24,340 nucleotides of DNA, taken from the UHGV virus genome UHGV-1426191; one strand, 5' to 3'. The notes under the pieces are model-generated. The model was not told where the DNA came from and did not search any database. It saw only the letters and a program-made list of their open reading frames with translations. Origin of the DNA: a virus. Below, one piece after another: positions 19,759-20,707 of the stretch (positions are counted from its first letter, which is position 1; the number at the start of each line of letters is the position of its first letter). The translations under genes were made by a program, and so were the position numbers.

Positions 19759-20100
19759 TTGAAAGCCTTAGCCATTTTAATTGTTGCCTTTATGTCATTT
19801 GGGGCATCAGCAAGCGGGTACACTGCTTATTGTGGGCCTTACACCATCACTGCAAGGTTGGGTGAAATGGACATGATTAACGGTGAACGCGTCACATCGC
19901 AGAAAATTACAAATCTTGGTGCTGATGGCATTAAGATTGATATGGGGCTTATGCCTGCTAAAGATGGCAACAATTATGGCTTTGAATACATTCGCCGTCC
20001 TGGTACCGAAACGCGATTCCTGAACGTCCAACTGCTGCAGAACAGCATGGACGCGCCGAAAATTATCGGCTCCTTCCCGTGTAAAAAAGTGCCTGGTTGA
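19759..20100 (+). CDS. moron-encoded small secreted protein (cleavable signal peptide, two Cys)
   Basis: TTG start at 19759 with RBS GGGGGT 5 nt upstream gives MKALAILIVAFMSFGASASG... (signal peptide, AxA cleavage site ASA). The first ATG (19792) would remove the signal peptide. AT-rich relative to flanking genes; followed by a terminator hairpin. Confidence 0.65.
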   Translation: MKALAILIVAFMSFGASASGYTAYCGPYTITARLGEMDMINGERVTSQKITNLGADGIKIDMGLMPAKDGNNYGFEYIRRPGTETRFLNVQLLQNSMDAPKIIGSFPCKKVPG

Positions 20101-20118
20101 AGGCAGGCACTTTCTTTA
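20081..20118. terminator. bidirectional intrinsic terminator between convergent moron genes
   Basis: AGTGCCTG (20088-20095) / CAGGCACT (20104-20111) 8-bp stem, flanked by AAAAAA (20082-20087, a T-run on the minus strand) and TTCTTT on the plus strand. The stop codon of the + gene lies in the loop. Confidence 0.6.
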
Positions 20119-20119
20119 A

Positions 20120-20485
20120 TCATTCCTTTTTGATTTCGATTTCTTCTTTAGCCTCACTGAATAGTTTAAAAAGTTCTTCATCGGTGAGGTTGCTTGCTTC
20201 GATTTTGTAGCCGCCTTTTTTGATGATTATCTTCTTACTGTGTTTTGCTCTAATCCATGCGGCCACAACAGCAGCGACGCTATAACAAACATCTTTGTTT
20301 TGGATAAATTCAAAAATGTATCCGAGTATCACTGATGCGGGTGAGGATGCAGAAGGCGCTGAATCACCTACCCGCGCCCTTACACCCATTTTTCTGGCTT
20401 CAGCGGGGATGATCTCCTCGATATAAGGGATCAACTCTTCCCCTACGGATTTTGAGAGGCGTACTTTGAAAACTGATTTAGTCAT
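20120..20485 (-). CDS. moron-encoded hypothetical protein (121 aa), opposite orientation to all phage late genes
   Basis: Only convincing minus-strand gene in the phage part of the window: no overlapping + gene, ATG at complement of 20483-20485 with AAGGAG/AAAGG upstream, AT-rich, Lys/Glu-rich C-terminus (EELFKLFSEAKEEIEIKKE). No family recognised. Confidence 0.7.
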   Translation of the reverse strand: MTKSVFKVRLSKSVGEELIPYIEEIIPAEARKMGVRARVGDSAPSASSPASVILGYIFEFIQNKDVCYSVAAVVAAWIRAKHSKKIIIKKGGYKIEASNLTDEELFKLFSEAKEEIEIKKE

Positions 20486-20665
20486 AACCTTTGGCGGCTC
20501 CTTCCGGAAAAGAATTAATGCTATATGGTCACTGGCTGGAACTTTGTTGGCTTTGGTCTTTTATGGCGAGGCAAAAATCGTTCTTAAAAACTATTGCCAT
20601 CAAGATGAGCCGAAAAAGGTGTAACACCAACACCTGATAATTTATATCCTGATATTTGATCAGTA

Positions 20666-20690
20666 ACCCGCCACCCGGCGGGTTTTTTGC
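20666..20690 (+). terminator. plus-strand intrinsic terminator at the right boundary of the moron island
   Basis: AACCCGCC (20666-20673, loop ACCC) GGCGGGTT followed by TTTTTT (20683-20688), 18 nt upstream of the gpV-like start. On the minus strand the hairpin lacks a T-tract. Confidence 0.55.
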
Positions 20691-20707
20691 TTTCTGGAGC
20701 CTACAAA

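Follow-up and report, generated by a model that had tools for sequence, protein, structure and literature searches.

A putative protease-less EACC1 gene and its overlapping small partner in a cargo slot of enterobacterial prophages

The EACC1 family takes its definition from a two-gene conflict system, in which it constantly accompanies a caspase-fused protein (Kaur et al. 2020, PMC7159879). Canonical EACC1-caspase systems are reported chiefly from actinobacteria and other multicellular bacteria, with only sporadic cases in proteobacteria (PMC7159879). The family has so far been recognised by its pairing with a caspase-like protease, and its pore-forming immune role was shown only recently (Evans et al. 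2025, bioRxiv 10.1101/2025.11.14.688446). According to that work EACC1 is an autoinhibited monomer, which the adjacent caspase-like protease cuts at Asp49 into fragments of 5.7 and 7.1 kDa; toxicity is confined to the C-terminal fragment, the cleaved form permeabilises liposomes and a role in anti-phage defence was shown experimentally (bioRxiv 10.1101/2025.11.14.688446). The same preprint makes no mention of prophage-borne or orphan EACC1 (bioRxiv 10.1101/2025.11.14.688446). Here we describe a locus in UHGV virus genome UHGV-1426191 (24,340 nucleotides; this whole stretch is referred to as the window) where a minus-strand gene between the baseplate hub and spike genes, ORF2, is likely to encode a divergent EACC1. 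It has no protease gene at its side and overlaps head-to-head with a small gene, ORF3, that had been overlooked.

ORF2, ORF3 and the EACC1 family

ORF2 (20120-20485, minus strand) encodes a protein of 121 aa with a Lys/Glu-rich tail, just as an earlier sequence-only reading of this DNA had described it. That reading recognised no family for either of the two proteins it considered, ORF1 and ORF2; both can now be placed, ORF1 in phrog_3443 and ORF2 among the distant relatives of EACC1. Relatives of ORF2 are few: they form 15 clusters among 5.8 billion proteins, and a profile of the family searched against all 1.84 billion representatives returned 28. Of the 31 aligned members 26 match Pfam PF19953 (EACC1) at E <= 1, and two of them exceed its curated cut-off of 23.6 bits (P0148 with 36.9 and P0154 with 26.6 bits). 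The ORF2-family profile in turn retrieves both proteins from the 1.84-billion-protein library (E = 3.5e-8 and 3.2e-5, respectively), and hhalign joins the close ORF2 family to the distant group with a probability of 99.25% (E = 5.9e-20 over 114 columns). It should be noted that the ORF2-family profile was also what recruited the distant group, so the independent evidence lies in the Pfam scores of its members. Taken as sequence evidence, this makes homology of ORF2 to EACC1 likely. Nothing was found in the literature under the family name STY1065/STY2022.

The predicted structure of ORF2 points in the same direction. The AlphaFold2 (AF2) model has a mean predicted local distance difference test score (pLDDT) of 68 and a predicted template-modelling score (pTM) of 0.60, and contains strand 5-11, helix 12-25, strand 31-39, a linker, strand 51-61, helix 64-80 (VCYSVAAVVAAWIRA), strands 86-90 and 93-97, helix 102-110 and strand 115-120. 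The first elements (5-39) form an N-terminal beta-alpha-beta domain (residues 1-41), linker residues 42-48 fall below pLDDT 50, and the C-terminal domain consists of a strand, the hydrophobic helix 64-80 rich in small residues, a hairpin, a helix and the last strand. This matches the architecture of EACC1, which has a short N-terminal alpha+beta part, a small-residue hydrophobic helix and a short C-terminal alpha+beta part. Asp41 is invariant in the close family and kept in 25 of the 31 members of the wide family, with Ser as the next residue in 19, and Asp41-Ser42 is located precisely at the onset of the length-variable, low-confidence linker. If ORF2 were cut after Asp41, fragments of 4.6 and 8.9 kDa would be predicted.

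The constant companion of ORF2 is ORF3, so that the layout of the interval has to be drawn anew:

18695-19756, plus strand: baseplate hub gene, left backbone (phrog_196 baseplate hub, E = 7.1e-89; weak match to Pfam E217_GP41; conserved in 352 E. coli genomes)
19759-20100, plus strand: ORF1, secreted two-cysteine protein of 113 aa, predicted beta-barrel (phrog_3443); a lineage gene outside the mobile cargo
20086-20113, both strands: bidirectional hairpin at the ORF1/ORF2 junction, ten-pair stem with U-rich tails on both strands
20120-20485, minus strand: ORF2, EACC1-like putative pro-toxin of 121 aa, likely divergent relative of PF19953
20466-20624, plus strand: ORF3, 52 aa with one hydrophobic helix, under coding constraint; its 5' end overlaps the 5' end of ORF2
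20649-20663, unstranded: palindrome CTGAT-N5-ATCAG, specific to the cassette, past the ORF3 stop codon and ahead of the terminator
20665-20688, plus strand: intrinsic terminator, eight-pair G+C-rich stem (20665-20684) and T-run, right border of the cargo slot
20708-21460, plus strand: spike gene, right backbone (Pfam PF18352 N-terminal domain, E = 2.7e-44; GpV apex motif); RefSeq also places its start at ATG 20708

The 222 nt upstream of ORF2 had been read as AT-rich room for a promoter of that gene, yet most of it is ORF3 and carries coding constraint. Across six genera this region has a mean DNA column identity of 82%, which makes it more conserved than ORF2 itself (47-74% protein identity among its more distant members), and a frame of ∼52 codons on the opposite strand is open in all six loci. 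In the 45 codons outside the ORF2 overlap, variable columns at codon positions 1, 2 and 3 number 24, 13 and 40 (of 45 each), and synonymous to nonsynonymous codon differences stand at 231:199 in the ORF3 frame but at 35:406 and 25:421 in the two alternative forward frames. ORF3 begins with TTG in the window and with GTG in four of the five other aligned loci, is preceded by a Shine-Dalgarno sequence GAGAGG (20454-20459) 6 nt upstream of its start, and overlaps ORF2 by 20 nt, head-to-head at the 5' ends. From this pattern of substitution ORF3 is very likely a real gene. Thus the second gene of the cassette, which the sequence-only reading had counted as ORF1 plus ORF2, is ORF3.

ORF3 encodes a strand, a hydrophobic helix and a second strand, and in several homologs the helix contains charged residues and so is not a clean transmembrane segment. 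The protein has no Pfam match. We also considered ORF3 as a fragment or mimic of EACC1 and rejected this, since hhalign gave a probability of 0.7%. A profile scan with the close-family ORF2 alignment found 16 viral contigs, and ORF3 accompanies ORF2 with the same geometry in all of them. Homologs of ORF3 also stand head-to-head with distant EACC1-like genes in five loci of other contexts (L062, L065, L066, L067 and L086); every phage-borne EACC1-like gene that we examined has an ORF3 partner. Existing annotation does not reflect this. ORF3 is absent from the RefSeq annotation of Escherichia coli STEFF_1, and in Hafnia phage yong1 (L070, NC_073022.1) its position is occupied by gp69 (39 aa, 2349-2468) in a different frame. 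That frame carries stop codons in other genera and the conserved frame is ORF3, so gp69 looks mis-annotated.

The cargo slot and its surroundings

The window shares 99.9% identity with an E. coli STEFF_1 prophage and belongs to the lineage of Salmonella phage SEN34, temperate myoviruses of the genus Brunovirus. As the sequence-only reading had noted, the interval is AT-rich: windowed G+C falls from ∼0.55 in the hub gene to 0.41-0.46 over 19750-20800. Its picture of a single two-gene insert between normally adjacent hub and spike genes had to be revised. In a species-level sample of 45 loci fetched via the hub protein, 39 contain both hub and spike, and only in three of these do the two genes abut directly. 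A full ORF1 homolog lies immediately 3' of the hub gene in 32 of the 39, and the variable part begins after the ORF1 stop codon.

We defined the edges of this variable part by alignment of ten loci with differing cargo. Homology among these loci ends at the ORF1 stop codon and restarts at the terminator hairpin before the spike gene. This right terminator is common to nine of the ten loci regardless of cargo, with a conserved stem and a varying loop, and so counts as part of the phage backbone, where it closes the slot. The right-edge terminator noticed earlier is thus present (stem 20665-20684, dG –16.1, a match in the terminator scan, 20 nt before the spike ATG) but does not belong to the cargo. 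The left hairpin (20086-20113), which that reading had called a bidirectional terminator, folds on both strands (dG –16.0 on plus and –17.6 on minus) with the ORF1 stop codon in its loop, and is probably the terminator of ORF2 and the left edge of the cargo. Of the moron features proposed for the insert, deviant G+C and an own terminator for ORF2 hold, while the right terminator has to be given back to the phage.

The slot extends from the ORF1 stop codon to the backbone terminator, and accessory cassettes appear to be exchanged there by recombination. In the genome L002 a cassette 100% identical to that of the window stands next to an ORF1 allele only 64% identical, and in yong1, L022 and L032 remnants of the ORF1 3' end are found beside the cassette or beside other cargo; both observations speak for recombinational exchange anchored at the ORF1 3' end and at the terminator. 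In addition, similar CCCGC-loop-GCGGG hairpins with A-runs lie in the same orientation on both sides of the cassette in L082, L083 (∼4802 and ∼5361) and L084 (∼4802 and ∼5365). These could serve as recombination anchors for cassette swaps.

The ORF2-ORF3 cassette is a rare occupant. While some part of the hub-to-spike stretch (18695-21460) matches in 352 of 5,426 complete E. coli genomes, the segment after ORF1 (20101-20686) is present in only three, each time 100% identical, so that three of 352 related E. coli prophages have the cassette. The cargo was found in a single one of 50,697 phage records, yong1, the sole isolated phage with an ORF2 homolog. That the baseplate module holds mobile AT-rich accessory cargo, and that this cargo comes and goes among syntenic prophages, is therefore borne out for ORF2 plus ORF3 but not for ORF1, which is conserved. 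Other contents of the slot were the following:

Several E. coli relatives including enteropathogenic E. coli (EPEC) E2348/69: two-gene cassettes, ∼250 aa plus 123-142 aa, weakly HEPN-like
L011: DUF2335 membrane protein
L004: DUF4282 protein (membrane)
Phage SEN34: 138-aa gene
L014: slot without an annotated gene

The commonest other cargo observed is the plus-strand pair of ∼243-258 aa and 123-142 aa (L003, 2556-3715; L010, which is E. coli E2348/69, 1827-2979; L012, 1844-2997; L013, 1767-2895). Its smaller protein matches Pfam HEPN at E = 0.001 and, marginally, PADLOC HEPN_IX at E ∼0.009; the pair, as yet uncharacterised, may be of the toxin or abortive-infection kind. The other slot cargo gave no convincing score to any recognised PADLOC system, and we found no published account of the slot in the literature searched.

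Relatives of the cassette mostly keep to this position. It occupies the slot between ORF1 and spike in 15 of the 16 viral contigs as well as in Klebsiella, Izhakiella and metagenome loci, and an ORF2 relative of only 31% identity is found there too. An exception is an Erwiniaceae prophage, in which the cassette is flanked by the sheath-initiator gene and by a gene for an unrelated secreted protein with two Cys. The latter (L007, 6395-6781, minus strand) encodes 128 aa and is convergent with the EACC1-like gene. We detected no similarity between it and ORF1; it may fill the secreted-small-protein position in an analogous way. Other relatives are found elsewhere, in places typical of genes expressed during lysogeny: the gene of P0148 lies directly 3' of a cI-type repressor gene on the same strand, and the P0139 and L086 copies adjoin holin-endolysin cassettes. 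In phage lambda it is rexAB that holds the position next to cI. In every locus where orientation could be judged, ORF3 shares the direction of the late or lysis genes, and the EACC1-like gene either opposes them or shares that of cI. The distant EACC1-like gene of P0141 is part of a larger opposite-strand island between the tail genes of a related module (L066, 3433-6766), together with genes for 135 and 96 aa and for an ORF6N-domain protein.

Between ORF3 and the right terminator the palindrome CTGAT-N5-ATCAG is invariant, bar one loop base, in six cassettes of different genera. An exact-pattern search finds it in 10 of the 16 viral contigs. Loci with other cargo lack it. A protein could bind there, or the palindrome could contribute to an RNA structure. 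A scan of 19600-20800 against Rfam gave nothing near any gathering score.

ORF1, in turn, is most simply explained as a resident gene of the late operon. Its description as a TTG-started gene for a signal-peptide-like protein of 113 aa with two Cys holds. The protein matches phrog_3443 at E = 2.8e-46 (residues 2-112 on profile positions 2-114 of 115), and its relatives, among them gp20 of Klebsiella phage Mulock, form 393 clusters by single-sequence and 728 by profile search, all from Enterobacterales. ORF1 DNA, diverged, matches in 287 of the 5,426 complete E. coli genomes, and in seven of the 39 species-level loci the hub-spike interval (384-423 nt) consists of ORF1 alone. Since the gene is found throughout the lineage, starts only 2 nt past the hub stop codon and is separated from the hub gene by no terminator, it looks like a member of the late operon. 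The sequence-only reading had held that conserved core baseplate genes would speak against it. ORF1 is indeed conserved, while its secretion makes it unlikely to be a baseplate part.

A signal-peptide-like N-terminus is present in all ORF1 homologs (the window protein reads ASA|SG), and Cys25, Cys108, Asn41, Gln48 and Lys49 are invariant in the family. In the AF2 model (pLDDT 83, pTM 0.70) a signal helix precedes an all-beta domain of seven or eight strands; we take ORF1 to be a conserved periplasmic, disulfide-bonded beta-barrel protein. Pfam gave no match for ORF1, MliC included; PADLOC and NCBIfam gave no meaningful match for ORF1 or ORF2. In the viral structure library nothing fell under E = 0.001, the best named match being a Serratia phage lipoprotein (TM 0.52). 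The periplasmic peptidoglycan-hydrolase inhibitors PliC, MliC and PhiA are the closest functional analogy for ORF1, and for ORF1 only, with likeness at the level of fold. They rank lower in the structure comparison (PliC 7.0, PhiA 6.9, MliC 5.6). Specific homology to PliC/MliC was rejected, as avidins score higher. The lysozyme-binding loop motifs of the PliC/MliC family are not seen in the ORF1 consensus. That ORF1 inhibits a cell-wall hydrolase and thereby excludes sibling phages is a weakly held, testable idea; its target could be the lytic transglycosylase domain annotated in the tape-measure protein.

ORF1 is also a mosaic among E. coli alleles. Only nt 118-342 align in most genomes, and in the hypervariable N-terminal third (window 19759-19875, ∼39 codons) the signal peptide and first hairpin are swapped for unrelated variants. 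In Salmonella phage SEN34 (L015) the gene SEN34_20 is annotated as 77 aa at 2679-2912. The full ORF1 homolog, signal peptide included, begins at 2571 (2571-2912, 113 aa, sharing 97% identity with ORF1 of the window) and the annotated start appears truncated.

Possible roles of the cassette

We tentatively propose, at somewhat less than even chances, that ORF2-ORF3 is a latent pore toxin carried by the prophage, which serves abortive infection and has a small protein as its partner. The sequence-only reading had guessed at phage defence or superinfection exclusion. The shown anti-phage role of the EACC1 family makes this guess reasonable for ORF2, whereas ORF1 is not part of the insert. In the proposed scheme ORF2 would be produced in the lysogen against a silent late operon, as an inert product. 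The linker would be cleaved at Asp41-Ser42 by an unlinked protease that either the host or an invading phage provides, and the released 8.9-kDa fragment would permeabilise the membrane, aborting infection by cell death. Expression from the repressed prophage is inferred here because ORF2 is opposed to the late operon and one of its relatives is co-oriented with cI. Prophage-borne suicide systems must spare their own phage, as illustrated by HepS of Gifsy-1 (PMC13043305). For the cassette this could be achieved upon prophage induction, when Q-antiterminated late transcription would run antisense through ORF2 and sense through ORF3. The late antisense transcription would silence the toxin and ORF3 would be supplied as modulator or antidote, so that the own lytic cycle is spared. 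An antiterminator of the Q family is indeed encoded in the prophage, ahead of its lysis and structural genes (window ∼1863-2285; L061 11429-11851 in the STEFF_1 annotation), which would account for late transcription getting past the terminators of the slot.

Several results weigh against this proposal. ORF2 of the window itself scores 12.9 bits against PF19953 (E = 0.11), under the 23.6-bit cut-off, and its close relatives score 14.8-21.3 bits, so that its EACC1 membership depends on transitive and profile-profile evidence; PADLOC, too, has no match for ORF2. No protease gene was found beside ORF2 or beside any phage-borne relative examined (L005-L009, L062-L067), and none is annotated within the 45-kb stretch that contains the prophage. 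As the adjacent caspase-like protease is absent, the activating protease would have to be an unlinked one. For the distant member P0156 the contig covers only 917 nt, with a partial downstream gene that has no Pfam match, and is too short to establish where in this branch protease-paired members begin. A consensus scan detected no sigma-70-type promoter in 19400-21000, where 2.3 sites are expected by chance, and a relaxed scan for conserved sites detected no conserved weaker promoter in six aligned cassettes. Since the scans yielded a promoter for neither ORF2 nor ORF3, we assume lysogenic expression solely on the grounds of orientation, and the role of ORF3 as modulator or antidote is conjectural.

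The geometry of the pair also suits an addiction or toxin-antitoxin module without a role in defence, in which one product is toxic (ORF2 as a pore former or ORF3 as a type I-like toxin) and the other gene counteracts it via its product or an antisense transcript. The two genes are obligately linked, and given their head-to-head overlap the mRNAs would be complementary at their 5' ends. ORF3 is Hok-sized (52 aa) with a single predicted hydrophobic helix, the antisense overlap would fit a type I layout, and the cassette travels as a unit among phage types. On the other hand, the charged residues in the helix of several ORF3 homologs leave no clean transmembrane segment, and the EACC1 family has a demonstrated role in defence. 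Moreover, many toxin-antitoxin pairs double as abortive-infection systems, so that this explanation overlaps with the abortive-infection proposal. We regard it as unlikely, with perhaps a minor share of the probability.

Two further explanations appear improbable to us, about equally so. ORF2 and ORF3 might be a lysis or lysis-timing accessory, an auxiliary holin/antiholin-like pair that acts in the phage's own lytic cycle. This would agree with the membrane pores formed by EACC1 fragments and with the two phage types in which the cassette adjoins holin-endolysin genes with ORF3 co-oriented. However, ORF2 always runs against the late or lysis genes, whose transcription would counter its expression; the prophage already has a lysis set of its own (a lambda-family holin and a GH24 endolysin); and the cassette, found in three of 352 related E. 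coli prophages, is rare and dispensable. Alternatively, ORF2 might be a counter-defence protein, a decoy substrate or poisoning subunit directed against host protease-EACC1 or other protease-gated immunity. The protease partner is missing from all phage-borne copies examined and the putative cleavage-site Asp is kept, as a decoy would have it. Yet EACC1-caspase systems are sporadic in proteobacteria (PMC7159879), their main hosts being actinobacteria and other multicellular bacteria, so that enterobacterial hosts would rarely hold the target of such a decoy. A counter-defence gene would also be expected among the early genes rather than antisense inside the late tail operon or in one transcript with the repressor. 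The earlier idea of ORF1 and ORF2 as a single moron island for lysogenic conversion, with ORF1 as an envelope-modifying factor, has in its favour that the entire interval is AT-rich, ORF1 is secreted and ORF2 is rare cargo, but is very improbable given the unrelated distributions of the two genes (287 versus three E. coli genomes), the seven loci with ORF1 alone between hub and spike, the close translational coupling of ORF1 to the hub gene and the constant partnership of ORF2 with ORF3.

Beyond this prophage, and more doubtfully than the abortive-infection role proposed for its own cassette, phages may carry an unrecognised class of protease-less orphan EACC1 pro-toxins, each paired head-to-head with a conserved overlapping gene of ∼50 residues as a one-locus abortive-infection switch. 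A protease that an invading phage brings in or activates, for example a head-maturation protease, would license the toxin, and the partner gene together with antisense transcription would turn it off in the phage's own late programme.

Relation to known systems

Bacterial gasdermins and other protease-gated pore formers share with the scheme proposed for ORF2 an autoinhibited monomer, proteolytic release and an oligomeric membrane pore; for EACC1 the gasdermin analogy was drawn by Evans et al. (bioRxiv 10.1101/2025.11.14.688446). The parallel does not extend to sequence or fold, for which no relationship was found. It also differs in that the inhibitory domain of ORF2 would be N-terminal.

The cassette resembles the morons and hotspots of prophages, such as lambdoid morons, rexAB and HepS of Gifsy-1 (PMC13043305), in being variable among syntenic prophages, in its G+C below that of the flanks, in the terminators on both sides of the cargo and in an orientation independent of or against late transcription. 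For rexAB of lambda the likeness includes position, as the P0148 relative is found in exactly that place. Unlike these morons, the cassette yielded no promoter in our search, and its slot is inside the baseplate block, between a secreted-protein gene and the spike. This slot beside the spike of SEN34-like prophages is an accessory-gene exchange site, and its other occupants are all uncharacterised.

With the EACC1-caspase system ORF2 shares profile-level homology, size (121 aa versus fragments of 5.7 and 7.1 kDa), an N-terminal alpha+beta domain followed by a linker, a strongly conserved small-residue hydrophobic helix and a C-terminal strand-strand-helix-strand, and an Asp conserved at the boundary of the two domains, the place at which EACC1 is cut (Asp49). 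In contrast to EACC1, ORF2 stays below the Pfam cut-off, has no adjacent gene for a caspase-like or other protease, resides in phages and prophages instead of the chromosomal defence islands of multicellular bacteria, and is always paired with the opposite-strand overlapping gene ORF3. ORF3 has been an annotation gap, missing in RefSeq and set in the wrong frame in yong1, the sole isolated phage that carries it. What appears to be new, judged from sequence, is a phage-borne, protease-less EACC1 tied to an overlapping unannotated small gene in a common exchange site of enterobacterial prophages. ORF2 and ORF3 make up a compact two-gene unit of roughly 560 bp, and a protease-less branch of this kind would show that another trigger or control can be coupled to the EACC1 effector.

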